The translations under genes and the position numbers were made by a program. Source: a virus (Duplodnaviria > Caudoviricetes). Taken from it: DNA of 64,000 bases. Under the pieces are notes generated by a model, which worked only from the letters and a program-made list of their open reading frames with translations, was not told the DNA's origin and ran no database searches. Positions 7,321 to 26,263 of the stretch are shown here, in pieces; the first letter of the stretch is position 1, and every line of letters starts with the position of its first letter. The DNA lies in the IMG/VR virus record IMGVR_UViG_3300035498_000371, positions 160,001 to 224,000 of that record, one strand, 5' to 3'.

Positions 7321-7424
7321 AATATAACCATTCCTTTCTATTAAATTTACTTGAATGTGGTCAAAATACTTGTTTAACCTTAAAGATGAAACACAATATT
7401 AATATTCGAAAGGAGGCTGATAAT

Positions 7425-10400
7425 ATGCTTTATTTAGAAGACTTGAAGTATATGAAGCTCTACAAAAAGAAGTTTTATGCTCCAATAAATAAGAAGAATA
7501 AGAAGACCGGCTCAGCAATATTATTGCTGACGCCTAATTATGATGCTTCTAAGTTTCTTATGAATAATCCATTCATGATAAACCGTAACGCATTTATATC
7601 ATACTATATTGAAAAGGATATAACGTATACTATAAATCATGAGTCTAAATATCTTGAGATATCTTATCATGATGCTGATACCATAGCACTTAATGAGCAA
7701 GCTGTTTATACAGAATCTACAGATGTTCAAGTTATATCTGAAATGGAAGAAGATTATACTATCAATGAATTGTATTGCAAGCTTGGAGATTCTATGATAT
7801 TCTTCAATGAGTTATATGACGAAACCATTCTTAATGAGAAAGGTGCTTATGCAGAGAAGTACCGTAAGCTGTTATATTACGATCGTATAAGAAATAATCG
7901 TGATGTATTACAGCTCTATAAGAAGATTAAAGAAGATAATCCATGGATAAAGAAAACTTTTATTGATTATAAGAGATATAAGTCTTTCAATCTATTCATA
8001 GATCTTTATTATTACAATCAGATATACCTAGCTAATAACAATTACACTATAATTAAATCAATAGATATGTATTTGGAATTCATTCGTAGATTCCTTACAG
8101 ATAAGAGGATAGATACCGCTGGGTATACGAAGAAGACTATATTCATTCCAGTGAACTTCTGGGGTAAGAAGCCTGGAACTATGGTTTACGATTATAAGAA
8201 TAATTTAAATCCCATATCAATAATCTATAAGAAGCTTAGACTATCTATAGAAGATCTTCATGCTCTTGATGGATTAGAAATGGTATTCTTTGGAAATAAT
8301 GGTTATTTCAAATTCAAGACAGATGATGTAACAAAACAAACTCATACTAAGTTCTTAAGATTCATTAAAGCTCTTGAGGATAATGAGACTATAGATGATT
8401 CAGATGAACCAGATAATTCTCCAGATGGAATTACTACTGAGATTATAGATAAGCTTGACACTAATCGAGGTATTAAAATTCATAATCTTACTGGAAATGC
8501 AGAATCTGAAGAAGAGCAGGAACAACTTAAAGCAGAATTAGTAAAGAGGATAAGCGATGCTTCTAAGACTGCTGCTAACGAAGATGATGTTCTTGATAAT
8601 CTGGAGAATGATGAGTTTGTAAAGAAAGTTATTTCTGACCTTGGAGATGATGCAGAGGATAATATAAAAATATCTGCTGCAAGAGCAACAAGAATTACTA
8701 AAGCTCAAGATAACTTCATGAAGAAGTCTATCAATAATAAATCAGTTAAAGATATGGTTAATGAGTCTAATAAACCAGAAGAATTACCAGAGACTGAATT
8801 ACCGATAGAGACTATAAACGAAGAGTGGAAGCATATGAAAGCTATAAACTTCGAGAAAGAATATGATCTTGACGCTGATATCATCAAGATTCTTAATAGC
8901 CTTAGCGATACCAATAAAGAATATCCAGTATCCATTCTTGATGTAAAGATGGAAGACACGTCTACATCTGAGGATAGTATTTATACTTACACTGTAAAAT
9001 GCGAGGACTATTCTGGTAAAAGATTTACTCTTAAATTTGATATTCCTAAATTTAGGGATAATAGATTTATGAGGCTACGTGGTAATGAGAAGATATTCTC
9101 TATAGAGATGCCTCTTATACCAATATCAAAGACTGATGAAGATACTGTACAGATTGTATCATTCTATAACAAGATCTTTATAGAAAGATATAATACATCT
9201 ACTGGCAAATCTAACCCTGATGCTGCAAGATTTATTAAAGCAATGAATAAATATTCTGGTTCGGATATTAAAGTCAGCGTCGGAGATAATACAAGAATCT
9301 GTAGCAAGTATGAACTACCAATAGATTATGTAGATTTAGCATCAATGTATTCTAAAATTGAATACTCTGCTAAAGGCGGTTTACTCAAAGATAGATTTAC
9401 AATATATTTCAACCAAGATGAATTGAGGAAAGATATTAAGAATCTCAATGAATCTGAAGGTTTGCCAGTTGGTTTGTATAACGATGGTAGAGTAATCTAT
9501 TATGTAGCTAACGAGGATAATACATTTGCTAGCTTCATTAGTGTATTGCTTGGAGATGATTTCTATGAATCATTCAGGTCTCAAGCTAAACCTAAGAAAT
9601 GTACTTACTCAAGAGCAAGTATATTAAATACCAATATCCCTGTAATTACTATACTAGCTCATGACCTTGGCTTAACCAAAGCTATGGATATTGCTGGTAT
9701 AGATTATGATATATCTGAGAAGAGGACGCCTAGAAGTGATGAAGATGATACAATAAAACTCGCTGATGGATTTATCCATTATAAATCAACTTACACTTCT
9801 ATGATGCTTATGAATGGTCTTAAGGATTGTAATATGGAAGACGTTCAAATAACCGAATTAAACTCTAAGATTACTTGGGTTAATATATTGGAGAATTTTG
9901 GTGGTAGAATCAAGTCTGATGGTTTAACAAACTTTAAAGATCTTATGTACGACCCAATTACAGTAGAAGTATCTAGAGATTATAAACTCCCAGATAATTA
10001 CCATGATGCTTTAGTATATGCATCAAATCTCTTAGTGGATAATAAGTTCACAACTCATACTGATATCAGTACTAATAGATATCGTACAAACGAAGTTGTT
10101 GCTGCGCAGTTCTATAGAGTTCTTTCTGATTCATATAAAGAATATGCTCTACAAAATAAGCATGGTCGTAAAGTACCGATGTCTATGAAGCAGTCTGCTG
10201 TAATTGATCTTATTCTTGCACAGAACACTACATCTGATTTATCTGTATTCCAACCATTATTGGAGATTGAAACAAAAAATACGATATCAACCAAGGGTGT
10301 TACTGGAATGAACTCAGAAAGAGCATATAAGATTGATAAGCGTGGTTATGATGATTCGATGGTTAATGTTATAGCTCAGGCTACAGGTTTTGCATCGACC

Positions 10401-11756
10401 GTTGGTGTAAATAGGCAGACTACAATAAACCCTAATATTGTTGGCGGTAGAGGTTATTTTAAGCAATCTGATGAGGAGAATATGAGTGTTACTAATACTT
10501 TATGTATGACTGAGGCTTTATCTCCATTCGTTGTTACATCTGATGATCCATTCAGAAATGATATGACTTTCGTACAGACTGCTAAGCATTCTACACCAAT
10601 AGATTATAGTACTCCTATGCTGGTAACAACTGGAGCTGATGCTGCAATGCCATATTTATGCTCAAATATGTTTGCTGCTAAAGCAAAATCTAAGGGTACG
10701 GTTAAGGAAGTTACTAAAGATTATATGATTATCCAGTATGATAATGGAGAGAAAGATTATATAAATCTTGATGAACAAACTATGAAAAACTCTGATGGTG
10801 GTTTCTATATTTCTCTTCAATTAAAGACTGACCTCAAGGAAGGTTCTAAAGTAAAAGAAGGAGAAGTAGTAGCATACGATAGCAAATCTTTCTCTAAATC
10901 TGTTGGAGATAATAGACAGTTGGCTTATAATATGGGCTGTATGATTAAGGCTGCTGTTATGACTACAGAAGATGGATTTGAGGATTCTGGTAAATGCTCT
11001 GAATGGTTAACAGAGGCGATGTCATCAGACATTGTGGTTATGAAACCTGTAGATCTTCCCCCATCTACCAATATTTTATTCTTAATAAAGAAGGGTACCG
11101 AAGTGAGGGAAGGAGAACCAATCTTAATATTCCAGAATGCATATGATGAAGAAGACGCTAACGTTCTTCTTAAGAATCTTAATAATGAAGATGGAGATGT
11201 ATCAGAGATAGGAAGAAATGTAATCAAGTCTAAGGTTACTGGAGTTATTTCCGATATTAAAATCTATCGTACTTGTGAGATTGATGACCTTTCTGATAGC
11301 TTAAAGAAGATTGTAAAATCTAAAGAATCTGAAATTAATAGGCTTAAGTCTAAGTCTAAAGGAAGTGTTTCAGAGGTTCAGTTTGATTCTACTGAAAAAT
11401 TGCCTCAGAATGGTAAGCTTAAGAACTTAGATGGTGTTCGTATTGAGATATATATGAAATACCATGATCCATTATCTGTTGGTGATAAGATAGTCGTTCT
11501 TAATGCTAATAAGAACGTTCTTATGGACGTCTATGATGACGAAGATGCTCCTTATACCGATTATAGACCTAATGAAGCTATAGATCAGATTACTTCTGCC
11601 AGCTCAATGGATGGTCGTATGATTACTTCTATTATGAAGACTGGAGCGTTGAATAAACTTATGATAGAGTTAGCTAGACATGCTTGTGAAATGAATGGTC
11701 TTAAATGGAAAGATTTGCATGAAATTAGAGAAGACTATCTTAAAAATAACCAATAA
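7425..11756 (+). CDS. Multisubunit RNA polymerase beta subunit, N-terminal part (probably virion RNAP)
   Basis: FVQTAKH, sandwich-barrel motifs AKAKSKGTVKEV and VKEGEVVAY, DGFEDS, VGDKIVVLNANKN, SSMDGRM. Ends before the C-terminal beta regions. AAGGAGG SD before ATG 7425; promoter at 7390-7402. Confidence 0.85.
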   Translation: MLYLEDLKYMKLYKKKFYAPINKKNKKTGSAILLLTPNYDASKFLMNNPFMINRNAFISYYIEKDITYTINHESKYLEISYHDADTIALNEQAVYTESTDVQVISEMEEDYTINELYCKLGDSMIFFNELYDETILNEKGAYAEKYRKLLYYDRIRNNRDVLQLYKKIKEDNPWIKKTFIDYKRYKSFNLFIDLYYYNQIYLANNNYTIIKSIDMYLEFIRRFLTDKRIDTAGYTKKTIFIPVNFWGKKPGTMVYDYKNNLNPISIIYKKLRLSIEDLHALDGLEMVFFGNNGYFKFKTDDVTKQTHTKFLRFIKALEDNETIDDSDEPDNSPDGITTEIIDKLDTNRGIKIHNLTGNAESEEEQEQLKAELVKRISDASKTAANEDDVLDNLENDEFVKKVISDLGDDAEDNIKISAARATRITKAQDNFMKKSINNKSVKDMVNESNKPEELPETELPIETINEEWKHMKAINFEKEYDLDADIIKILNSLSDTNKEYPVSILDVKMEDTSTSEDSIYTYTVKCEDYSGKRFTLKFDIPKFRDNRFMRLRGNEKIFSIEMPLIPISKTDEDTVQIVSFYNKIFIERYNTSTGKSNPDAARFIKAMNKYSGSDIKVSVGDNTRICSKYELPIDYVDLASMYSKIEYSAKGGLLKDRFTIYFNQDELRKDIKNLNESEGLPVGLYNDGRVIYYVANEDNTFASFISVLLGDDFYESFRSQAKPKKCTYSRASILNTNIPVITILAHDLGLTKAMDIAGIDYDISEKRTPRSDEDDTIKLADGFIHYKSTYTSMMLMNGLKDCNMEDVQITELNSKITWVNILENFGGRIKSDGLTNFKDLMYDPITVEVSRDYKLPDNYHDALVYASNLLVDNKFTTHTDISTNRYRTNEVVAAQFYRVLSDSYKEYALQNKHGRKVPMSMKQSAVIDLILAQNTTSDLSVFQPLLEIETKNTISTKGVTGMNSERAYKIDKRGYDDSMVNVIAQATGFASTVGVNRQTTINPNIVGGRGYFKQSDEENMSVTNTLCMTEALSPFVVTSDDPFRNDMTFVQTAKHSTPIDYSTPMLVTTGADAAMPYLCSNMFAAKAKSKGTVKEVTKDYMIIQYDNGEKDYINLDEQTMKNSDGGFYISLQLKTDLKEGSKVKEGEVVAYDSKSFSKSVGDNRQLAYNMGCMIKAAVMTTEDGFEDSGKCSEWLTEAMSSDIVVMKPVDLPPSTNILFLIKKGTEVREGEPILIFQNAYDEEDANVLLKNLNNEDGDVSEIGRNVIKSKVTGVISDIKIYRTCEIDDLSDSLKKIVKSKESEINRLKSKSKGSVSEVQFDSTEKLPQNGKLKNLDGVRIEIYMKYHDPLSVGDKIVVLNANKNVLMDVYDDEDAPYTDYRPNEAIDQITSASSMDGRMITSIMKTGALNKLMIELARHACEMNGLKWKDLHEIREDYLKNNQ

Positions 11757-12923: not shown

Positions 12924-13442
12924 TTATAAGCATACTCTTTTTACATTGGTTAAATCATCATGATTGATGATATCGGTAATCTTATCTACAGTATTGGCGT
13001 CAAGATAATGTAATGATTTAAGATAGACTATAATAGAGCCATGTGGTTCATTCTCTACAGCCCCAATCCATTTATCCCAGTTAGCAGCCTGAAGATCGAT
13101 AAAATCATTATCGTTACCACGTAGATACATTCTACCAATCCATTCTGCTTTACATTGCTTAGATGGATAAACTGTTACATAATCGATACCAGCATCTTCT
13201 AATGCTTTACGAACCTGAATGTGAGATGATACTAAGATTATATCAGCAGTATCAAGATTATCTTTAATATGCTGGATATAATTTGCAGGAAATTCAGGAT
13301 TACGTTCTTTTGTACCGTCTTCATGAATAATCCATGAGAATGAAGAAGAATCAGAGTCTAATACTCTTTTTCCTCTAACGGTATTTGTATAATAAGATTT
13401 ACCACATGCTGGATAAGTGCTAATTACTAAAGCTTTCTTCAT
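12924..13442 (-). CDS. P-loop NTPase / nucleotide-kinase-like protein
   Basis: Walker A-like YPACGKS followed by VLDSDSS. Confidence 0.6.
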   Translation of the reverse strand: MKKALVISTYPACGKSYYTNTVRGKRVLDSDSSSFSWIIHEDGTKERNPEFPANYIQHIKDNLDTADIILVSSHIQVRKALEDAGIDYVTVYPSKQCKAEWIGRMYLRGNDNDFIDLQAANWDKWIGAVENEPHGSIIVYLKSLHYLDANTVDKITDIINHDDLTNVKRVCL

Positions 13443-13456
13443 ATATTTTCCTCCAT

Positions 13457-13909
13457 TTAATTTAGTTTACATACAACAATTTCTATATCCATATCATTGA
13501 ATACGCTATGAATTGCTTGGTAAACATCATCCCATCTTAATCTATCTAAACCACAACCAATGGCTGGCATAGCGACTTTAGTGATGTTATTAAGAAGGCA
13601 TGTCTGCCTCATATGAGATAACGCACCAATTAATGAATATATTGTAGGCTTATCCCAATAATGTATTTTAGTTACCAGATTAAGAACTCTTCCATCTAAT
13701 AAGCAATCTCCATATAGGATCTTATCATAATCATTATGATTAGATAAATAATCGGGATATTTTATCATAAGATTATTCTTGGTATTGAATCTCTTATTGA
13801 ATTCTACAGCGATCCCTCTACCCATACCGAAATCTGCGCTAATGCATTGAGCCAGATAATAATCTTCTGGCATTGAGAATAAATCTCTTATTTCTTCAGT
13901 ATATACCAT
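13457..13909 (-). CDS. Macrodomain protein (Poa1p/TARG1/DarG-like ADP-ribosyl hydrolase)
   Basis: AQCISADFGMGRGIA, NLVTK and AMPAIGCGLDRLRW motifs. Confidence 0.8.
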   Translation of the reverse strand: MVYTEEIRDLFSMPEDYYLAQCISADFGMGRGIAVEFNKRFNTKNNLMIKYPDYLSNHNDYDKILYGDCLLDGRVLNLVTKIHYWDKPTIYSLIGALSHMRQTCLLNNITKVAMPAIGCGLDRLRWDDVYQAIHSVFNDMDIEIVVCKLN

Positions 13910-14361
13910 TATTTATCCTCCTTAGATGGAGTTTTAAGATCTTCTTGCATCTTCTTAATCTGTTCTTCTGTATCAATGCCATCACGTTGGATTATCTGTA
14001 ATATAATTATCTTATTGCCAGCGTTATCCATCTTAACGTTGAAATCAATACTAACGACTGAACGATCATTCATTACAGCAAAATCAATCTCATAGCCAAC
14101 GCTATCGGCTACCATTAATTGTAATGGTAAATTTTTGAATACAACGATAATATTATCGTCATCATTTGTACCATAATTCATAGAATAATCATCAGTTTCG
14201 TCATTAATGAATGTAAGAACTAACCAACGTCTCCCAAAATTGGCAATACGAATAAGAATTTCAACCTCATCTGTTTCTCCATCTAAGCATATTGATCGCG
14301 ATTCCAATAACCTCTTAGACTGTTGAATAAATACTTCTGTAGATAAATCCACTTTACGCAT
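13909..14361 (-). CDS. Hypothetical protein
   Basis: AGGAGG SD; promoter at 14388-14400 (minus); coupled to the macrodomain gene. Confidence 0.5.
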   Translation of the reverse strand: MRKVDLSTEVFIQQSKRLLESRSICLDGETDEVEILIRIANFGRRWLVLTFINDETDDYSMNYGTNDDDNIIVVFKNLPLQLMVADSVGYEIDFAVMNDRSVVSIDFNVKMDNAGNKIIILQIIQRDGIDTEEQIKKMQEDLKTPSKEDK

Positions 14362-14527
14362 AATTAAGACCTCCTAAAAATAAAATTTTACTCAAATGTG
14401 AGGCTTATGTTATTTGAGCAAAATTATCAACCTCTTTGGGTAACATCTAATTAATATCTGAAGGTGGGTCCGTGGAGCCATCCACTCCACAGATATGTAA
14501 AATCTACGAAAGGAAGGTAAAATCGTT

Positions 14528-15019
14528 ATGGCAATTAATAAAGCTACACTTGCAAAAGAGATTGATGGCGTCATTGAGTATATCTATCCAAAAACATCTG
14601 GTGATATAGTCGTGTATGATGAAACTCATAGCGTTAATGCTATGATTCAAAGTCTCTTAGAGAACAAAGTGGACAAGGAAGACAATAAAGGTCTTTCTGA
14701 GTACGACTTCACTAAGACGTACAGAGATAAGCTTGAAGGTATCGCTGCTGGAGCGACTAAAGTTGTTCTTGATAGCGAGTTATCTACAACAAGCGCCAAT
14801 GGTGTACAGAACAAAGTAGTTGCTAGCAGATTTTCTACAGTAGAAGAGAATGTTTCAGCCCTCCAGAAAACTGTTAGTGATCTGAGTAACGACACTGCAA
14901 CCAGTGATTCATTATCGAAGCTTACTGATAGGGTAAGTACTCTTGAATCGTTCAAAAATGACTTAGGAAGCGCTCTTACCGTATCAAACGGTCAGCTCTG
15001 CGCTATCTATGCACAATAA
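14528..15019 (+). CDS. Tail-fibre-associated protein
   Basis: IYPKTSGDIV N-terminal motif; KVDKEDNKGLSEYDFT...KLEGIAAGA and LDSELSTTSANGVQNKVV fibre repeats. Confidence 0.7.
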   Translation: MAINKATLAKEIDGVIEYIYPKTSGDIVVYDETHSVNAMIQSLLENKVDKEDNKGLSEYDFTKTYRDKLEGIAAGATKVVLDSELSTTSANGVQNKVVASRFSTVEENVSALQKTVSDLSNDTATSDSLSKLTDRVSTLESFKNDLGSALTVSNGQLCAIYAQ

Positions 15020-15039
15020 TTTAAAGGAGGAATAAAGAT

Positions 15040-15915
15040 ATGGCTACAACAGTTACAAAACCTATCATCTTAGACGAAACTGGTAACAAGATCGTCGATG
15101 CTATGGGTAACATTGTTACGTCACTTAATGATCTTAAAAAGATCCAGCTGGCTAATAACGCTGGCGCTCACAATGGTCTTTACCGTGGTAAAGACTTATC
15201 AAACACTTACACCGATACAGAGATTTATGATATGATTTCTACAGGAGATCTTTCTGACCTCTATGTAGGTGACTACTTCAAGAAATCTATCACTTCTACC
15301 ATCGGTGGAACAGAAGATATCGATGTTCAGATCGCAGGATTCAACCCTTACTACAACGTTGGAGATACTGCATTGACTCGTAACCATGCAGCCGTTGTCA
15401 CTAAAGACTGCGTTCAGACTTTGGCTCAGATGAATACCACAAACACAACTGTTGGAGGTTACGTTGCTACAGATATGTACAAGACTACATTACCTGCATA
15501 CGCTAACGCTTTACAGCAGGCTATCGGATCTACACACATCATCTCTCGTCGTGCTTTACTTACGACTGGTATTAATAATACAGATCAGTCTGCAGGAATT
15601 GGTACAGGGCGAAGCAATGCATGGTCTTGGTACGATGAATTAGTAGGTATTATGACTGAAGCAGAAGTATACGGAGCACCTGTATTTAGTTCATCAGGAT
15701 ATGATACAGGAGAAGCTTGCATCCAGTTACCTCTCTTTGCGTTGAATCCTTCGTCTAGGGTGGCAGGCAAAGGTAGAAATGGATCAAGACAGTGGTATTG
15801 GTTAAGAAGTATTGCTAATTCCACCTACTTCTGCCACGTCAACTACTATGGCTATGCCATCTACGGCAACGCGTCCGATGCTGGCGGCGTTCGCCTCCGC
15901 TTCCTGATCGGTTAA
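15040..15915 (+). CDS. DGR target protein, C-terminal CLec/DUF6273-like domain; probable receptor-binding protein
   Basis: WYWLRS...GGVRLRF C-terminus contains the VR; tail-fibre context. Confidence 0.9.
   Translation: MATTVTKPIILDETGNKIVDAMGNIVTSLNDLKKIQLANNAGAHNGLYRGKDLSNTYTDTEIYDMISTGDLSDLYVGDYFKKSITSTIGGTEDIDVQIAGFNPYYNVGDTALTRNHAAVVTKDCVQTLAQMNTTNTTVGGYVATDMYKTTLPAYANALQQAIGSTHIISRRALLTTGINNTDQSAGIGTGRSNAWSWYDELVGIMTEAEVYGAPVFSSSGYDTGEACIQLPLFALNPSSRVAGKGRNGSRQWYWLRSIANSTYFCHVNYYGYAIYGNASDAGGVRLRFLIG
15817..15904 (+). repeat. DGR variable repeat (VR) with GC-rich 3' end/IMH
   Basis: 88-bp ungapped match to 17837-17924 with 12 mismatches, all opposite TR A. May extend to 15812 with 3 more A mismatches. 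Confidence 0.97.
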
Positions 15916-15917
15916 TC

Positions 15918-15952
15918 GATGGGCCGTAGCCCCCTCGTGGGGCGTGGCCATC
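15918..15952 (+). promoter_or_regulatory. DGR target-recognition hairpin/cruciform
   Basis: GCCCC-CTCGT-GGGGC core extended by GATG(G)GCC/GGCCATC, immediately 3' of the VR and stop codon. Confidence 0.75.
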
Positions 15953-16943
15953 ACTTAATGGATAAGGAAGGTCTAGCGGAAGGATAAAAGCCGTAGGCTT
16001 ATTTTCGCGCGAAGCGCCCGAAAAAATTTTAGGCCTTCCTAGATGAACCATTTTCGGTAAGTTTAGGAAGGCTTATTTTATCATTTTCGAATTTATAGAC
16101 GCACTATGACCGAGTGATGTGGTTGCTAATTAAAACGTTGATATCGTGGAATTATTGTTGGATTTTTATTTTTGGTTATCATTTTATTTCTTTTTCATGA
16201 CGATATATTTGTATGATTATTTTATCTTTATATGAATTCGTATACTGATAGATGATTCTATATAAATCGTATAAATAATGAATGATTGTATAATAACTAA
16301 TCTTACATGATATAGAATATATTTGATAACTATCTTATATCTTATTTTAAAATAATGAATGATGGTATTTGAATATTAAACGAAGAGTATCTTAGTTCTA
16401 TATACGAAAATATAAGTGGTTAGATTTAAATATAGAATTAATTTTATTTTTTCATTTAATATCACACATTGTGCGGTATGTAAACTATTATTCATCTATC
16501 ATGTAATTAATGCATTTTAAGCATTAAAATAAATCTTATAAAGACTAAATAAGAGATTATTTAGCGATGGATATGGTATCACAATTGATACTAATTAAAT
16601 CCTATATTGTGATAAATATAATTCATTCAAACTAACTCTCTGAACAGATTTAAACTTTCTTTCTAACCTTGGTTACATTTCATAGAAATAAAATTTATTT
16701 GAAAACTGAATAGAGAAAAATGTAACTAAAAGAAATGAAAAATACTAGCAGGGATAAAGTAAAAGAATATTTAATATGCTACTTGTGATTTATTAATCAT
16801 ATTATAAAACGCTGTTGGATAATGTAATAGATCTTAATACTAATGGGCTTATGGATTGTTCTACTGGTCTTATAAATCACATTCAAGAAATAATAACTCT
16901 GGTGTAGATTAGATAAAGATAATGGGTATAATAATAACCGAAA

Positions 16944-16956
16944 TACATTATGGTAA
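16944..16956 (+). promoter_or_regulatory. Phage ACA-N6-TAA promoter upstream of avd-TR-RT
   Basis: TACA-TTATGG-TAA, 26 nt before the avd ATG. Confidence 0.6.
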
Positions 16957-16982
16957 ATTTATATGTATGGAGGCGATGAAAT

Positions 16983-17711
16983 ATGTCTGTTATTAAGAGA
17001 AAGAGAACTAAATCTAATTTACAAGCGCTGTATGATGCACAAAAAATGAGGACTAGCGTTAGCAGATTGATGCTAAAAGACTTCGGTGCGAAACCTAAAG
17101 TGAGAACCGTTGAGGATATTGCTAAGAATTATAAAATGAGTTCAAGAGATGCCGAAAAATATTTAGAGTTGACGAAGAAATATGGAATTACCACGACGTT
17201 GGAAGAGTTTCCATATTGGTTCGTCGATGATCTACGGAGATCGGTGTCGACATGTATGAGGGAGATGGCTGAGCATATTACGATTGCTAATAGTATTTAC
17301 CCAAATAGCATCTATGAATGCGATTTAAGAAGACAACATCAAGACATTGCCATCGGGCAATGCGAATTTTTATTACAAGAGTTGCAATATATAATGAGCG
17401 TAATACCATTGAACGTAAATAAATTGATGCCGTATGTGGAAATGGTTGAAAAAGAGATTGCTTTGCTTAAAGCATGGAGAAAATCCGACAATTCCACCAG
17501 GACAAGAATCATCAATAATGAAATCGAAAAGTATTCGCAGGCTCCACAACTGTTATATCCATATTTGCAATACTCTAATAATTATATTGGCCAATTTAAA
17601 CAACCATTGCAATCATATCCTACAATGGTAGAGCAGCCCATAATGGAAAAGCGTATCATGTGCGTCATAGTTCCAAAGAAATCGCCTTATAAATCTTGTA
17701 GTTCTCATTAG
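16983..17711 (+). CDS. avd: DGR accessory variability determinant (Avd-like) with C-terminal extension
   Basis: MSVIKRKRTKS start, ANSIYP, RRQHQDIAIGQC, EIALLKAWRKSD helical-bundle pattern; lies directly upstream of TR. Confidence 0.85.
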   Translation: MSVIKRKRTKSNLQALYDAQKMRTSVSRLMLKDFGAKPKVRTVEDIAKNYKMSSRDAEKYLELTKKYGITTTLEEFPYWFVDDLRRSVSTCMREMAEHITIANSIYPNSIYECDLRRQHQDIAIGQCEFLLQELQYIMSVIPLNVNKLMPYVEMVEKEIALLKAWRKSDNSTRTRIINNEIEKYSQAPQLLYPYLQYSNNYIGQFKQPLQSYPTMVEQPIMEKRIMCVIVPKKSPYKSCSSH

Positions 17712-17836
17712 AGAGCGAATGTTGTTATTGTTGTAAGTACTACTGCGCGTATGCAGATTGGTATGAATTCGAACATTACTGTGATGGATTTACTAGCTCC
17801 ACTTCCATCGTTGTTACAGGGATTCAACTTGTTAAA

Positions 17837-17924
17837 AATTCCACCAACTTCTGCAACGTCAACAACAATGGCAATGCCAACTACAACAACGCGTCCAATG
17901 CTAACGGCGTTCGCCTCCGATTCC
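17837..17924 (+). repeat. DGR template repeat (TR)
   Basis: AAC/AAT-rich copy of the VR (12 AAY codons in the VR frame), located between avd and RT. Confidence 0.97.
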
Positions 17925-18110
17925 ATTTTGCGGTACTACGAGTAGAAGTCTCTGAATGGAGCTTCGATACCGTAACTCGGAAGGAAGTTGAGTCCTGTCC
18001 GCAAGGCGAATTTATAATATGATGCTATTTTGATACGTCACAGTGGCTATTACATATTAGCGGGAGTGGTCACTAGATCACTCCGCATATCTTATGCACT
18101 GCTATACGAA
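17925..18110 (+). ncRNA. DGR RNA spacer (structured region 3' of TR)
   Basis: Stems CGGTA/TACCG, GAAGTCTC/GAGCTTC, and GCGG(G)AGTGGTC/GATCACTCCGC (18060-18086). Confidence 0.55.
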
Positions 18111-18126
18111 TGGAGGGTAATTATGA

Positions 18127-19272
18127 TTGATAGAACTGATAACAGACGCTAACCATTTGCATGAATCCTTCTTGAAATGCAAGCAGGGTACTGACTGGAA
18201 GGAGTCTGTACAACGGGCTAGCCTGAATGAATTGAAAAATATTTATCATAAACAGAAAAGCCTGCAAGAACATGCTTATAGTCAGATGCCTTTCTATGAG
18301 TTTAATATAATGGAACGTGGTAAAGAGCGTCATATAAGATCGCTTCATATTACTGACCGTATGGTTCAGAGATGTGTATGCGATTTTATACTATTACCAG
18401 AACTATCAAAATATCTTATTTATGATAACGGAGCATCTCTCCGTGATAAAGGAATTGGATTTACAAGAGATAGATTGCACCAGCATCTATGGAATTATTA
18501 CTGCAATTATGGCCCTGAAGGATATATTCTATTGATCGATTTTCGTAAGTTCTTCGATAATATCGATCATGAGCTTCTATTAGAAGCAATAAAGAAAAAG
18601 ATCAAAGATCCAGAAGTGATTGAACTAATCACTTATCTGGTAAGTACTTTTGCTATAGATGTATCTTACTTGTCTGAAGAGCAGTATGAAGAGTTCAAGA
18701 GTGAAATATTTGACTCGATGTCTTATGAGCCATATCATGAAAGAACTGGAGAGAAGTTGTTGTATAAATCCCTTGGAATGGGTAGTCAGATATCTCAAAT
18801 TTCTGGTATTTATTATCCAACTCCTATAGATAATTACTGTAAAATTGTTCAGGGTTGCAAGTATTATGGAAGATATATGGATGATACTTATATCATTCAT
18901 CATGATAAAGAATATTTAGTTTGGTTATTGGAACAGATTAAGTCTATCTGTTGGGATTTAAGGATTTATATAAATCTTAATAAAACACAAATCCAAAAAT
19001 TGGATCATTTCACCTATCTTAAAGTGAAGTATACTATGACCGATACCGGTAAAGTTATTAAGAGAGTAGCGAGCGACTCTGTTACAAGAGAGCGTCAGAA
19101 ACTTAAGACTTTTAGAAATCTTTTATTAGATGGATATATGACGATTGATGAAATCATTAATCAATATAAGTCTTGGAGAGGTGGAATATTACATCTTGAT
19201 TCATATAGAACCATTCAGAATATGGACGCCATATTTCTGGAATTATTCGGTATAAACATCGAACATGTTTAG
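18127..19272 (+). CDS. DGR reverse transcriptase
   Basis: ERGKER, DRMVQR, IDFRKFFDNIDH, LGMGSQISQ (DGR GxxxSQ) and YGRYMDD; no maturase or endonuclease domain; TTG start. Confidence 0.95.
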   Translation: MIELITDANHLHESFLKCKQGTDWKESVQRASLNELKNIYHKQKSLQEHAYSQMPFYEFNIMERGKERHIRSLHITDRMVQRCVCDFILLPELSKYLIYDNGASLRDKGIGFTRDRLHQHLWNYYCNYGPEGYILLIDFRKFFDNIDHELLLEAIKKKIKDPEVIELITYLVSTFAIDVSYLSEEQYEEFKSEIFDSMSYEPYHERTGEKLLYKSLGMGSQISQISGIYYPTPIDNYCKIVQGCKYYGRYMDDTYIIHHDKEYLVWLLEQIKSICWDLRIYINLNKTQIQKLDHFTYLKVKYTMTDTGKVIKRVASDSVTRERQKLKTFRNLLLDGYMTIDEIINQYKSWRGGILHLDSYRTIQNMDAIFLELFGINIEHV

Positions 19273-19299
19273 TAAATACTTTAAAGGAGGTAATTAACA

Positions 19300-19611
19300 A
19301 TGGATAAGAAAATTACTTATACTATTGCATTTGCTGATGGAGCATCATTCGGTCCCGCCGAGCTTAACGGCAACAACTATGTTGTTTCTGGCGATGTAAG
19401 CGATGCTGTAAACGCAGCAAGTAAAAAATCTGTAACTGTAGACGGCAGTGATGGATCACATGTAGAGTTCAAGAATGCTACTGTAAACGCAAACGTAGTT
19501 GGCGGCGATACATATCTCTTTATCGAAGAGGAATCTGAGTCTAAGAGATATGAAGACTCCGTAGAGGCTCGTTTAACGTATCTTGAAATGATGATTGGAG
19601 GTACAGAATAA
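19300..19611 (+). CDS. Small tail-associated protein (XkdW-like position)
   Basis: AGGAGG SD; ELNGNNY motif; coupled to the XkdX gene. Confidence 0.55.
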   Translation: MDKKITYTIAFADGASFGPAELNGNNYVVSGDVSDAVNAASKKSVTVDGSDGSHVEFKNATVNANVVGGDTYLFIEEESESKRYEDSVEARLTYLEMMIGGTE

Positions 19612-19748
19612 TGAGTAAATTCGAGAAAGTACAGTATTTCTATGATAGAGAACTGTGGACAATCAGTCAGGTTAAAGATGCTGTTGCTAAGGGATGGATT
19701 ACAGCAGCTCAGTACAAAACAATCACTGGAGAGAAATACGAGGCATAG
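19611..19748 (+). CDS. xkdX: XkdX family protein (45 aa, not in the ORF track)
   Basis: MSKFEKVQYFYDRELWTISQVKDAVAKGWITAAQYKTITGEKYEA; TAATG overlap with the previous gene. Confidence 0.85.
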   Translation: MSKFEKVQYFYDRELWTISQVKDAVAKGWITAAQYKTITGEKYEA

Positions 19749-19786
19749 TTCTCATATTGCAGTGAAATAATTAAAATGCGATGAAT

Positions 19787-19822
19787 GCGGGAGTGCTTAA
19801 TTGCACTCCCGTGTTTATTTTG
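19787..19822 (+). terminator. Rho-independent terminator
   Basis: GCGGGAGTGC-TTAATT-GCACTCCCGT plus T tract. Confidence 0.8.
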
Positions 19823-19878
19823 TAAAATAAATAGATTAAGACTTTTTAATAAATAATATAGTTAGGAGGTCTTATTTT

Positions 19879-20766
19879 ATGATTACTTGTACTGAAAGCG
19901 GTAAAGGTTTTACTAAAGGTGATATGTATCTTAAAAGTACTATCGAACGTATTCTTACAGAAGGATGTCTTGATGAGAATCCAAGACCTAAATACAAAGA
20001 TGGAGTTCCGGCTCATACATTATCGGTTAACCATGAGATGCAGACTTATGATCTTGCTAATGGAGAATCTGGGTTTACTACACTAAGACCGGTATCTTTA
20101 AAGAGTGCTATTGGGGAGATCTTATGGATCTATCAGGATCAGTCTAATGATCTTGATTTACTTAAAGATAAGTATGGAATTACATGGTGGGATGAATGGG
20201 ATATTGGAAATCGCACCATTGGTTCATGCTATGGTGAAACTATAAGAAGACATGACCTCATGAATAATCTTCTTGAAGGAATCAAGAATGATCCAGATGG
20301 GCGTAGACACATTATCACAATGTGGCAGGTTGATGATTTCAAAGATAAGCATGGATTAAAACCTTGCTGCTATCAGACAGTATGGAATGTACGTCATGGT
20401 AAAGATGGAGTTACATACTTAGATATGTGCATGTTCCAGAGATCATCTGATTTTCTTGTATCTGGAACTATCAATTGTTTACAGTATACAGCATTATTGT
20501 ATATGGTTGCTGGACATTTTGGTTATACTCCAGGAAGGTTTACTTGGTATAACGCCAATGTACAGATTTACGATCGTCACCAGGAACAGGCTAATATCTT
20601 ATTAGAAAGAGAGCCGATTATATTTGATACTGGTAAACATCCTCATTTTGAGGTTGAACCTAAGAATTTCTACGACTATACTGTAGATGATATCAAAATC
20701 ATTGGTTATCCAATGAAAGAAGTTAAAGAAAAGAATCCTCAGCTTAAATTTGATCTTGGTATTTAA
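19879..20766 (+). CDS. thyA: Thymidylate synthase
   Basis: EILW, PDGRRHI, LKPCC, QRSSDF, QIYDRH motifs. Confidence 0.95.
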   Translation: MITCTESGKGFTKGDMYLKSTIERILTEGCLDENPRPKYKDGVPAHTLSVNHEMQTYDLANGESGFTTLRPVSLKSAIGEILWIYQDQSNDLDLLKDKYGITWWDEWDIGNRTIGSCYGETIRRHDLMNNLLEGIKNDPDGRRHIITMWQVDDFKDKHGLKPCCYQTVWNVRHGKDGVTYLDMCMFQRSSDFLVSGTINCLQYTALLYMVAGHFGYTPGRFTWYNANVQIYDRHQEQANILLEREPIIFDTGKHPHFEVEPKNFYDYTVDDIKIIGYPMKEVKEKNPQLKFDLGI

Positions 20767-21791: not shown

Positions 21792-22392
21792 TATAGATAT
21801 AGATGATGTATGTAGTAAATTCGACTCGTATTTCGTTGCAGAAAAACAGAATCAGATTGATAAAAGATATAGGGCATCTTCTGATATAATATTCTCTGAT
21901 GGTAAATTTGATCATCATATTAATTCTGAAGGATATATTGTGATAGAGAATGTAAGAGATGCTAATTATCTTATATTTACCGATCAAACCGGAGATGTAA
22001 GATTAATTATATACCAGAATACGCCGTCATTTAAGTTTAAAGATATTATTGACAGATGTAATCAAATTAGAGAAACCACTGGGGAAATTAAATCTGAAGA
22101 TAAGAATGATAATTCTGATATAAAGATATCTGAAAGGCTCATAGATATCAACACGTTTGTATGCCCAACGTGCAATGGTAAAATGACTTTAATTAAGCCT
22201 AAAAGTACCAGTGAAACTATAGTTGCATATTGCAAGAAATGTAATATAGAATATGTATTAGTCCCGTCAAAGTATTACGTTATAAAAGCCCAAAAACAGT
22301 TCTATAATTCCACCAATGAAAGACATACTATGGTGGAAAATATCATATCAAAGAAAGGAAGTAATAAAAATGAGCGAAGTAATAAGAATTAA
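21778..22392 (+). CDS. Zinc-ribbon-containing hypothetical protein
   Basis: CPTC...CKKC. Confidence 0.55.
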
Positions 22393-22831
22393 GTATTTTG
22401 GAGATCAGGAACCAATCGAGAAAATTCCTAATGGAGATTGGATTGATCTTCGTGCGGCAGAAGACGTTGCAATTCCTGAGAAGGAGTTTAAATTAATCCC
22501 TCTTGGAGTGGCAATGCAGTTACCTGTTGGGTATGAGGCGCATATCGCACCTAGAAGTTCTACGTTTAAGAAATGGGGAATCATTCAGACTAACTCTGTA
22601 GGAGTAGTCGATGAATCATACTGTGGGGATAATGATCAGTGGTTTATGCCAGCTTTCTGTTTGCGTGGGGATTATGTAAACGATAACGGAGAACACTTCT
22701 CTTGCATCCATAAAGGCGATAGAATTTGCCAGTTCAGAATTGTTAAGAAACAGCCTGAAGTAGAATTCGAAACTGTTAACGTACTCGGTAATGAGGATCG
22801 TGGAGGTATTGGCTCTACAGGAACCAACTAG
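22370..22831 (+). CDS. dut: Trimeric dUTPase
   Basis: [34 protein letters not shown] motifs. Confidence 0.95.
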
Positions 22832-23940: not shown

Positions 23941-24735
23941 ATGATAAATACCGAATTTATAAATAAGGTAGAAAATGTATATACAGATGGCGGGAAATCT
24001 ACTATTAAGGTTAAGAATGCTCCATATTATGATGGAGAGCAATACGATCTTGATGATCCAAAAGATTTCAAGCATTTTATTGATGACCTTAAAAGAATTG
24101 TTCGTAATTCATTTGAGTATCGTTGGTTAGTTGGTTATTTAAAAGAGACTGATGGGATGGATGAATGTAGTGTTCTAGAAAATGTTACTTCTAGAGATAA
24201 TTCTGGGGTTAAAATAGAATTACATCATTCTCCATTCACATTAGAAGACATATGCTTAGCTGTAGTAAAGAAACGTATAGCCAATAATGAAGATATGAAT
24301 ATTAACGCTTGCGCTTACGAAGTTATGTATAATCATTATCTGAAATGGATTGGTTTGATTCCTTTATCTTCAACAGTACATGAGCTAGTTCATAATGCAT
24401 ACTTTTTCGTTCCAGTAGATAGAGTGTTTGGAGATTATAAGCCATTTAAAGAATCATACTATAATTATATCGATCCAGCAGTATTGGATGCTATAGATAA
24501 TGCTGAACAGGCTACAGAAGATTATGATGATTCTCAAATGCAAATCTTCAATAATCATAGAATTTACGTTGATACAGAGGATTATGATAATCAACGATTC
24601 AGCGATCTTCGTCCAGCGATTACAAATAGAATCGATGAGATAAAAAGTGGCACTCAAGCTCATATTCCAGAGGATAAACAACAGTCTAAAGTGATGTGTT
24701 ATATTGTAGATAATAGAAAACCAAGAACATTTTGA
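23941..24735 (+). CDS. HNH-like jumbo-phage protein (paralog of 35076-35738)
   Basis: IELHH...LSSTVHELVH; promoter at 23911-23923. Confidence 0.5.
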   Translation: MINTEFINKVENVYTDGGKSTIKVKNAPYYDGEQYDLDDPKDFKHFIDDLKRIVRNSFEYRWLVGYLKETDGMDECSVLENVTSRDNSGVKIELHHSPFTLEDICLAVVKKRIANNEDMNINACAYEVMYNHYLKWIGLIPLSSTVHELVHNAYFFVPVDRVFGDYKPFKESYYNYIDPAVLDAIDNAEQATEDYDDSQMQIFNNHRIYVDTEDYDNQRFSDLRPAITNRIDEIKSGTQAHIPEDKQQSKVMCYIVDNRKPRTF

Positions 24736-25597: not shown

Positions 25598-26263
25598 ATG
25601 AGTGATACATTAGAAATTTGCACAGATGCGTCCATTAGGACGTTTGAAAACGGTAGGGTTTTTGGATGCGCTGGAGCATTATGTATTAATACTGGAGAAT
25701 CAGAATATGTTATAAGTCAGGATACGACTAATAACAGATCTGAATTGCTTGGAATATATCTGGGAATTAGATTAGCTGAGAAGATTTATCTTAACAACCC
25801 AGATGCATATGATGAAATAAAACTGTATTCCGATAGTCAATTCGGCATATTCGGTTTAACAAGATGGATGGACGCTTGGTTAGAAAGAAGCGATCCGAAT
25901 GGCATCTTGTATGGCACCAATAACAAACCTGTGAAAAATCAGGAATTGTTTAAAGCAATAATCACATATCTTACCACTCATAATATGAGGGTAAAAATGT
26001 TGCATCAGTCAGGGCATGTATCTTTAGGAAATACTAAAAAATTAGCTGAGGCAAACGCGGTATTTTTAAACTCTAATGGTTACTTATTAAGACCGGAGGA
26101 GATATATAAAATATCGTATTATAACGACATCGTTGATAGGACTAGCAGAGACAAATTACAATACGTTAATCCGAATGATTATCCCGTAATGGATTATTCT
26201 GAAAATTATAACGTTATGTGCAGTTATGTAATCCCAGCAAATTATAAAGAATATGTTTGCTAG
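25598..26263 (+). CDS. rnhA: Ribonuclease H
   Basis: CTDAS, TNNRSEL, YSDSQF, PVKNQEL, QSGH, YNDIVD. Confidence 0.9.
   Translation: MSDTLEICTDASIRTFENGRVFGCAGALCINTGESEYVISQDTTNNRSELLGIYLGIRLAEKIYLNNPDAYDEIKLYSDSQFGIFGLTRWMDAWLERSDPNGILYGTNNKPVKNQELFKAIITYLTTHNMRVKMLHQSGHVSLGNTKKLAEANAVFLNSNGYLLRPEEIYKISYYNDIVDRTSRDKLQYVNPNDYPVMDYSENYNVMCSYVIPANYKEYVC

Follow-up and report, generated by a model that had tools for sequence, protein, structure and literature searches.

Diversity-generating retroelements (DGRs) are, to our knowledge, the only natural system of targeted protein hypermutation in prokaryotes and their viruses, and their mechanism is known almost wholly from one temperate phage, BPP-1. 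Can such an element operate in a phage that encodes its own RNA polymerases (RNAPs) and carries no integration genes? The question is raised by a locus in a 64,000-nt stretch of viral DNA (Caudoviricetes; IMG/VR record IMGVR_UViG_3300035498_000371), referred to here as the window, which represents bases 160001-224000 of a single 238,843-bp contig. In it, a target gene, an avd gene, a template repeat (TR) and a reverse transcriptase (RT) gene follow one another on the same strand, and we conclude that they very probably form a canonical, currently active DGR in a virulent-looking jumbo phage of ~239 kb and of the AR9/PBS1/MarsHill type. Coordinates are those of the window (Table 1) unless they are marked as genome coordinates.

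A repeat search of the window returned an ungapped direct repeat of 88 nt (15817-15904 and 17837-17924, 86% identity) in which 12 of the 12 mismatches fall where the downstream copy, the TR, has an A, exactly as a first-pass annotation of this stretch had reported. The repeat reaches 5 nt further in the 5' direction (TT, then GCT in the variable repeat, VR, against AAA in the TR), and over this full pair of VR1 and TR all 15 differences are at TR adenines, for which the hypergeometric probability is ~2e-9 given 30 adenines in the 93 nt of the TR. Read in the frame of the target open reading frame (ORF), the TR holds the 12 AAY codons already noted in that annotation plus one AAA, and 14 of the 15 VR1 differences occupy codon positions 1 or 2, the remaining one being a third-position change (CGA to CGC, 15900) that is taken up below. 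The TR itself is non-coding, the sole overlapping ORF being one of 64 aa without a family match. A search for further VRs, which the first-pass annotation had suggested, was made by scanning the whole contig for matches to the non-adenine positions of the TR, and it returned exactly three sites: the TR, VR1 and a second repeat, VR2, at genome 99110-99200, 77 kb upstream of VR1 and outside the window, which that annotation had missed. VR2 departs from the TR at 18 positions, 18 of which are TR adenines and none a non-A position, and the 13 differences between VR1 and VR2 are likewise all at TR adenines. The adenine-confined signature by which a TR and its VRs are recognized is thus found at both sites, with a probability of ~2e-9 or lower.

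Evidence that the element still works comes from comparison between assemblies. The 90%-identity cluster of target protein 1 (P0001) includes two other full-length sequences from other assemblies, one of which (P0246) differs from P0001 at 10 residues, all within 263-282, and the other (P0244) also at 10 residues, eight of them within 266-282. Every VR difference in these two proteins sits at a TR AAY codon, and the chance of finding 10 of 10 differences within 13 of 291 codons is ~3e-16. Three variants of target protein 2 (P0247-P0249, compared with P0002) differ only at residues 263-286, save one residue in one variant, and the five variants together show 3 stray differences outside the VR. 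A sister phage, whose RT is 80% identical (P0008), is present on at least 24 contigs of up to 246 kb. Nine of its assemblies, from different runs, have an identical TR, 0-1 differences in 2.7 kb of flanking sequence and nine different VRs, which differ at TR-adenine positions with the exception of one base beyond the 3' end of the repeat in one assembly. The target proteins of the sister phage form a 90% cluster of 32 members, and the 15 listed are all different from each other (15/15), in the same codons. Because the VRs vary at TR AAY codons within otherwise identical DNA, the element is active in nature, with both targets being rewritten, and the ongoing diversification expected of a working DGR is seen here between assemblies; the recent activity that the first-pass annotation had guessed from one VR is therefore borne out. 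The abundance of natural VR variants (the 32-member cluster and the nine distinct VRs from nine assemblies) also makes this a good population-genetic model. The sequencing runs that shared 6-10% of the sequence words, four Logan contig sets labelled as freshwater metagenome, held scattered 151-nt pieces, 97-100% alike and outside VR1, and are uninformative on VR variation and habitat.

These comparisons also bear on whether the DGR might be a relic, in which the RT or Avd no longer works and the differences date from past activity. A dead element would gather non-A changes and freeze one VR, but neither VR has a single non-A difference while flanks from independent assemblies are identical, and the nine sister assemblies have nine different VRs; in addition, every ORF is intact and the RT retains its catalytic motifs. 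The lack of direct read evidence from within a sample would fit a relic, as would an Avd that is atypically long and without a Pfam or NCBIfam match, and we consider this explanation very unlikely.

Table 1. Coordinates, in the window, of the retroelement and of the genes and signals around it.
Feature	Position	Strand	Description
163-aa ORF	14528..15019	+	directly upstream of target 1; weak PHROG matches only; syntenic 165-aa gene in all sister loci
DGR target gene 1 (P0001, 291 aa)	15040..15915	+	N-terminal helix, then predicted DUF6273-type C-type-lectin-fold domain; VR at C-terminus
VR1	15812..15904	+	15/15 differences from TR at TR adenines; 3' end of ORF 15040-15915
Initiation of mutagenic homing (IMH)-like 3' end of VR1	15885..15904	+	GC-rich, A-free core CGGCGTTCGCCTCCG and fixed C at 15900 where TR has A
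GC-rich hairpin, loop CTCGT	15921..15949	+	downstream of VR1; DNA fold -12.2 kcal/mol, z -2.6
Terminator-like GC hairpin GCGCGAAGCGC	16006..16020	.	flanked by T and A runs; closes target gene 1
AT-rich stretch, ~1 kb, 27.5% GC	16021..16982	.	between target 1 and avd; no ORF >=50 aa
avd (P0003, 242 aa)	16983..17711	+	predicted four-helix bundle, internal insertion, disordered C-terminal tail of ~55 aa
MCVIV peptide in Avd tail	17658..17672	+	matches proteome-wide terminal tag of the phage
TR	17832..17924	+	17834-17924 common to both VRs; 30 adenines
Structured spacer (Sp)-like RNA	17921..18061	+	begins by pairing last 4 nt of TR; part of DGR RNA
DGR reverse transcriptase (381 aa)	18127..19272	+	TTG start; GGAGGG Shine-Dalgarno 11 nt upstream
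103-aa ORF	19300..19611	+	downstream of RT; 104-aa counterpart in sister phage
xkdX homologue (45 aa)	19611..19748	+	PF09693, E 5e-17; match also in contigs L043, L053

The machinery that would write the VRs was identified from its three parts. The RT carries GSQISQ and YMDD, as first annotated, and thus the [LIV]GxxxSQ and YxDD motifs of the DGR clade, and it matches RVT_1 (E 4e-12) and phrog_1423 (E 4e-63). Its best PDB sequence match is 8ub7 (E 4e-8), entitled 'DGR ribonucleoprotein reverse transcriptase', which we take to be the BPP-1 enzyme (bRT). Assignment to the group II intron, retron or defence-associated RT (DRT) enzymes was rejected, given scores far below the NCBIfam cut-offs and the genomic context. 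For the spacer RNA between TR and RT, RNAalifold applied to nine relatives, jumbo and non-jumbo, gave 28 pairs, 19 with compensatory changes, and an invariant hairpin with a GNRA-type loop, and this RNA appears to be the counterpart of the Sp region of BPP-1. An Rfam scan of window positions 14000-20000 returned nothing meaningful.

The third part, an Avd encoded beside the TR as is usual in DGRs, matches PHROG 3206 ('Avd protein of DGR', E 7e-7) over residues 70-174 and gave no match to Pfam, NCBIfam or PDB sequence profiles. In an alignment with 11 Avds adjoining related RTs, the motifs ANSIYP, RR..Q..AI and LLKGWRKSDN were conserved, and the AF2 model consists of four long helices with a small subdomain inserted at residues ~35-77, followed from ~190 by a tail (residues 191-242) in which the predicted local distance difference test (pLDDT) score is below 50. 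Foldseek matched the model at a probability of 0.9-1.0, but with weak E-values, to 2gsc and 2rld, which we take to be Avd-like four-helix proteins, and to 8ub7_B, the second chain of the BPP-1 DGR ribonucleoprotein and presumably its Avd. On the PHROG 3206 match, the alignment and the fold together, we assign the protein to Avd, in agreement with the first-pass annotation.

The tail of this Avd deserves separate mention. All Avds of the five jumbo genomes compared have a C-terminal extension and are 242-298 aa long, whereas the Avds beside RTs of the same clade on 20-70-kb contigs have 177-195 aa. In the window phage, the peptide MCVIV lies 12 residues from the C-terminus (KRIMCVIVPKK), within the segment modelled as disordered. 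The pattern MC.[IVYM][VI] occurs 15 times in the filtered ORF set of the phage, and 11 of the 15 occurrences lie no more than 25 residues from a terminus, where 2.5 would be expected (binomial P 2e-6). Besides Avd, its bearers include HNH-type ORFs, an ORF in the RNase H region and a protein encoded at genome 116-835, and its sites in the window include, besides the one in avd, 24700-24714 and 26216-26230. The Avd of the sister phage retains VMCVIV and a terminal PYKSCSS through an indel-rich tail, and the MCxIV tag thus appears to be a real, conserved feature of the window-phage Avd. The whole genome of a more distant relative (G003) yielded no convincing proteome-wide terminal counterpart of the tail of its own Avd (MYEIIV / FVDN), so that the sharing of an Avd tag with other proteins is shown for the window phage and its sister only.

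At the receiving end, VR1 and VR2 finish in the same A-free GC-rich stretch, CGGCGTTCGCCTCCG, and VR1 is followed by a hairpin, two signals that had been noticed at the outset and that hold up. At position 15900 the codon is CGC in VR1, VR2 and the nine sister VRs (11/11 VRs) and CGA in the TR, though any base there would be synonymous. Because the same C is fixed in all VRs despite this synonymy, position 15900 would be outside the transferred tract, and we read the CGA/CGC difference as a putative IMH/IMH* marker of the 3' limit of information transfer and not as a result of mutagenesis. Hairpins with CTTGT loops also follow VR2 (z -6.4, genome ~99218-99255) and the sister VR (z -5.4), and by analogy the hairpin after VR1 would be the counterpart of the BPP-1 target-site hairpin/cruciform. 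The combination of an IMH-type end and a downstream hairpin, typical of DGR target sites, is thus in place, and its function is presumed from that likeness. The ~180 nt after VR1, including the terminator-like hairpin, are conserved with the sister phage. The AT-rich stretch that follows shows no conservation with the sister phage, in which this gap is ~660 nt, and no further element was found in it; presumably it is the promoter or regulatory region of avd-TR-RT.

To what end these sites are diversified is suggested by the proteins that carry them. Exhaustive structural comparison (VIA-align) of the AF2 model of target 1 (pLDDT 91.7) gave a list dominated by C-type lectin-like folds, with many C-type lectin-like domains at Z ~5, the C-terminal domain of Legionella Lcl at Z 7.1 and the Treponema DGR variable protein TvpA at Z 6.5. 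The best structural match was the N-terminal domain (residues 32-283) of the Thomasclavelia ramosa IgA peptidase (PDB 9qa6; Z 14.2, 179 aligned residues), so that this phage-tip fold has already been solved in a surface protease of a gut bacterium. Among predicted viral structures (BFVD), the model matched entries named 'Receptor Binding Protein' and 'Tail-collar fiber' as well as DUF6273 proteins, with TM-scores of up to 0.80, and homologues of target 1 carry PF19789. In both targets the VR falls within a ligand-binding fold, in target 1 according to the model and in target 2 according to its DUF6273 score (25.1, which passes the Pfam gathering cut-off of 23.5).

The small gene xkdX usually stands beside tail-fibre genes in Firmicutes phages. 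The first-pass annotation had placed the cassette between fibre genes and xkdX; the xkdX homologue is secure, while the fibre genes on the other side are weakly supported (fibritin-like, E 1e-3). The 163-aa ORF directly upstream of target 1 is possibly its fibre or adaptor partner. Because of its fold and its neighbours, a receptor-binding role is likely for target 1, most likely as a receptor-binding tip.

The position of target 2 (P0002, 299 aa; genome 98324-99223, L005:8324-9223), of which VR2 forms the 3' end, is less easily read. Targets 1 and 2 both match phrog_21980 but are alike only over the C-terminal ~180 residues (30% identity), and the N-terminal ~120 aa of target 2, rich in cysteine, bear no relation to target 1. 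Upstream on the opposite strand are an RNAP beta' fragment and a gene for a NUMOD4 HNH endonuclease, and a gene for the RNA ligase RtcB lies two genes downstream on the same strand. In the protein collection, its only orthologues are its own cluster and two 190-aa DUF6273 proteins, with none outside the species. Target 2 may accordingly be no virion receptor-binding protein at all but an intracellular or secreted binding protein in phage-host conflict, as has been proposed for the second target of Quimbyvirus, a non-structural protein encoded beside a tRNA ligase (PMC8008677). The distance from the cassette, the neighbouring genes with their resemblance to the Quimbyvirus layout, the unrelated N-terminal part and the absence of orthologues outside the species would all suit such a role. 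However, structural genes are scattered in jumbo phages, so that position is weak evidence, the diversified domain is of the same DUF6273 type as in target 1, and no signal or functional domain points elsewhere. We regard a role outside the virion as plausible for target 2, though it is not the one we favour.

That the cassette belongs to this genome was examined against the idea that the assembly is chimeric here or that the cassette came in recently from a small siphophage of Clostridia. The nearest RTs among 50,697 deposited phage genomes are indeed in 39-55-kb phages of Roseburia, Acutalibacter and Faecalibacterium, and the VRs and the TR are GC-rich islands within an AT-rich genome. Against this, the gene order RNAP beta ... 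165-aa gene, target, avd, TR, RT, 104-aa gene, xkdX, thyA, dUTPase, RNase H recurs in at least 10 independent sister assemblies, and a second contig of the window phage, L043, which begins just after VR1, has the same order. The RT gene matches the genome in composition (33.2% GC, with 30.6% at third codon positions, against 33.9% GC), the second VR lies 77 kb away on the same contig, and Avd carries the terminal tag of the phage itself. Synteny in independent assemblies and the GC content of the RT gene lead us to exclude a chimeric contig, which the first-pass annotation had named as the finding that would overturn its reading, and a recent insertion or a chimera as the origin of the cassette is extremely improbable.

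The cassette is not confined to the window phage and its sister. Three further viral contigs (G001-G003; 220, 244 and 229 kb, CheckV 93-100%) have RTs that are 52-56% identical and an RNAP beta homologue that is 31% identical, and their TR/VR pairs show 20, 16 and 11 differences, respectively, all at adenines. With at least five genomes of 220-246 kb that carry A-signature DGRs, the range of these elements is extended to AR9/MarsHill-type jumbo phages. In the RT tree, the clade of the window phage and that of G001-G003 fall into a polytomy with RTs from short contigs, and the tree is compatible with one acquisition by jumbo phages or with several; one of the RT relatives (P0102) is on a 210-kb contig that may be bacterial. 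Among the 50,697 deposited phage genomes, no record >60 kb has an RT homologue at E <=1e-20, and a segment of Acutalibacter phage Fontainebleau matches the TR at 82% identity. From these sequence relationships, the host range would be of the Clostridia type and the cassette would derive from siphophage DGRs. The 244-kb contig G002 has a second lectin-type gene (L007:7397-8758), ending in ...RPYWLIG, between its active target and avd. The C-terminal region of this gene has no TR match (28 non-A mismatches in 80 nt), and it may be a decayed or never-targeted paralogue.

What kind of phage carries the element was determined from the whole contig. Its first 151 nt (genome 1-151) and last 151 nt (238693-238843) are identical but for one mismatch, and the assembly is therefore probably circular and complete; the IMG/VR catalogue entry gives it as linear and 76% complete. 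The Rpb2_6 domain is matched twice, at genome 25408-26181 and 171082-171621 (the latter in the window ORF 7386-11756), as is Rpb1_2, at genome 212924-213301 and 95389-95511. These two beta and two beta' gene matches, on which the reading of two RNAP sets is based, are closest to those of Staphylococcus MarsHill and the Bacillus AR9/PBS1 group. Over ~950 residues, the beta protein in the window shows 31% identity (E 5e-115) to the protein annotated as 'viral RNA polymerase beta subunit' in the Staphylococcus jumbo phages SA1, MarsHill and Madawaska. Further matches are to Listeria phage LPJP1 and to the Bacillus PBS1/AR9 group, with weaker ones to ~300 phiKZ-like records. At the nucleotide level, the other beta gene resembles the 'non-viral RNAP beta' gene of phage Machias, and a 1951-aa ORF matches AR9/PBS1 virion proteins.

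The jumbo size and dual RNAP of the first-pass annotation are thus confirmed, and a genome of more than 200 kb with virion and non-virion beta/beta' sets is what characterizes jumbo phages of the AR9/PBS1/phiKZ type. These data support the assignment of the host genome to an AR9/MarsHill-type jumbo phage with virion and non-virion multisubunit RNAPs. The 239-kb genome gave no match to tyrosine integrase (PF00589) or serine recombinase/resolvase (PF00239), repressor and partition genes not having been searched for, and this lack of an integration module, as in virulent jumbo phages, suggests a lytic lifestyle.

A phage that is not strictly lytic, but is kept as an episome or in a carrier state, could instead diversify its VRs during long-term carriage as temperate DGR phages do. 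PBS1/AR9-type phages are known for pseudolysogeny or carrier states, and the absence of an integrase is compatible with plasmid-like maintenance. The window phage also encodes a tubulin homologue, and such proteins serve plasmid-prophage segregation in some Firmicutes phages. The missing recombinases nevertheless speak for a lytic course, within the limits of the search just given, and the genome architecture is that of virulent multisubunit-RNAP jumbo phages; we judge carriage to be unlikely and retain the lytic reading.

Some other genes of this phage may be recorded here. The tubulin/PhuZ-like ORF (genome 20431-20904, in a frame of 399 aa; PF00091, 35.6 bits, above the cut-off) raises the question of a nucleus-like or spindle structure. 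Directly after the DGR module come a thymidylate synthase gene at 19879-20766 (E 2e-55) and then a dUTPase gene at ~22316-22831, both unexpected for a relative of AR9/PBS1-type phages, which use uracil DNA. The presence of ThyA and dUTPase genes would argue against AR9-type uracil DNA in this phage, although the ThyA homologue could instead be a dUMP-modifying enzyme. Three small minus-strand genes (12924-14361) lie between the RNAP beta gene and the DGR module, and one of them matches PHROG 335 'phosphatase' (E 5e-24), with a faint Macro-domain match in its sister-phage counterpart; a phosphatase/Macro-type gene could serve in ADP-ribose-related counter-defence.

How the element would work in such a phage can be proposed by analogy with BPP-1, from which the order of the steps is taken. 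The avd-TR-Sp-RT unit would be transcribed, presumably by a phage RNAP, from the AT-rich region upstream of avd, and a complex of Avd and RT would bind the structured TR-Sp RNA and make cDNA in which TR adenines are copied unfaithfully. The cDNA would then replace two VRs, both of which end in the same A-free, GC-rich, IMH-like sequence with a hairpin behind it: that of target 1, beside the cassette and near xkdX, most likely a receptor-binding tip, and that of target 2, 77 kb away, which has the same lectin-like domain. Each AAY codon could yield any of 15 residues, giving at least 10^14 variants per target, and adsorption would be the selected function. Since the phage brings its own means of transcription and replication but lacks genes for integration, a phage RNAP probably makes the DGR RNA, and retrohoming must take place on phage DNA that is being replicated.

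The last point suggests a tentative role for the tail of Avd, namely that it recruits the Avd-RT-RNA complex to replicating phage DNA so that the making of cDNA and the replacement of VRs would be coupled to replication inside one lytic cycle. This is a hypothesis that we put forward as possible but doubtful, in which docking would depend on the tag common to Avd and to the ends of helicase-, RNase H- and HNH-type enzymes of the phage. If true, the tagged tail would be a concrete link between a DGR and a replisome-type hub, and would offer a natural way into the step of DGR retrohoming in which cDNA is integrated, a step still unresolved.

Several points weigh against an active DGR in a lytic jumbo phage as described here. 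The variation is between assemblies and not within one population at one time point, and the differences between assemblies could in principle be old standing variation, though the identical flanks argue otherwise. Synthesis of cDNA and retrohoming are carried over from BPP-1 by analogy. The placement of targets 1 and 2 in the virion is conjecture, and the genes upstream of target 1 have marginal fibre matches only. The sequences point to a host no narrower than a Clostridia-type range, and the lytic lifestyle is deduced solely from the absence of recombinase genes, when PBS1-type phages can persist in carrier states.

Compared with BPP-1 (mtd-avd-TR-Sp-brt), the order of target, avd, TR, spacer and RT is the same, the changes are adenine-specific, the VR is at the C-terminus of a C-type-lectin-fold protein and has a GC-rich IMH-like end followed by a hairpin, and a structured RNA lies 3' of the TR. 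The nearest solved relative of the RT and the match of the Avd model to a second chain are both in 8ub7, taken to be BPP-1. BPP-1 is, however, a 42-kb temperate podovirus, whereas the present genome has 239 kb, no integrase and its own RNAPs. The element described here also differs in having two targets, one of them 77 kb away, an Avd of 242 aa that contains an internal insertion and ends in a disordered tail bearing the tag, a non-coding interval of ~1 kb between target and avd, hairpin loops of 5 nt (CTYGT) in place of GAAA, and a target domain of the DUF6273 type in place of the Mtd type.

A further likeness is to the DGRs of Clostridia siphophages (Roseburia Shimadzu, Acutalibacter Fontainebleau, Faecalibacterium Taranis and Lagaffe-type; IMG/VR contigs L009-L022), which share the RT clade (28-57% identity), the Avd subfamily with its internal insertion, the Sp RNA structure, a similar TR and DUF6273-type targets. 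Their cassettes are compact, with ~780 nt from VR to TR and Avds of the short kind described above, whereas here the cassette is expanded and Avd extended. They reside in 20-70-kb genomes, many of them temperate, and not in a multisubunit-RNAP jumbo phage.

DGRs with two targets have been published for Quimbyvirus (PMC8008677) and for the Bacteroides phages Bacuni_F1/F2/F4 (PMC8143477). As in those phages, a single TR supplies both a target adjacent to the cassette and a distant one among non-structural genes (tRNA ligase in Quimbyvirus, RtcB here), but they are ~40-75-kb Bacteroidota phages without their own RNAPs, and the Quimbyvirus RT needs frameshifts. The first-pass annotation had held that a DGR in a presumably lytic phage is unusual, since retrohoming must occur within one infection cycle. 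The RNAP-encoding jumbo lineage is new, but DGRs in lytic Bacteroides (Bacuni) phages have already been published (PMC8143477), and the argument is weaker than was stated.

With the AR9/PBS1/MarsHill jumbo phages of Firmicutes, the window phage shares a genome of more than 200 kb, a virion beta homologue (31%), a second, non-virion beta, HNH endonucleases and a homologue of a giant virion protein, and it differs from the cultured members in having a DGR. The RT of the AR9-like Staphylococcus phage MarsHill is retron-like and is without Avd, TR or VR (bioRxiv 10.1101/2020.12.14.422802), and a comparative survey covering 224 jumbo phages reported no FGS lectin domain of the DGR type (PMC7824862). 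In the searchable literature we found no DGR in a jumbo phage that encodes multisubunit RNAPs, and large IMG/VR-based DGR catalogues probably contain these contigs without comment. The element itself is an ordinary DGR and leaves the concept of what a DGR is unchanged; what is new for DGRs is the phage lineage and the long tagged tail of Avd.

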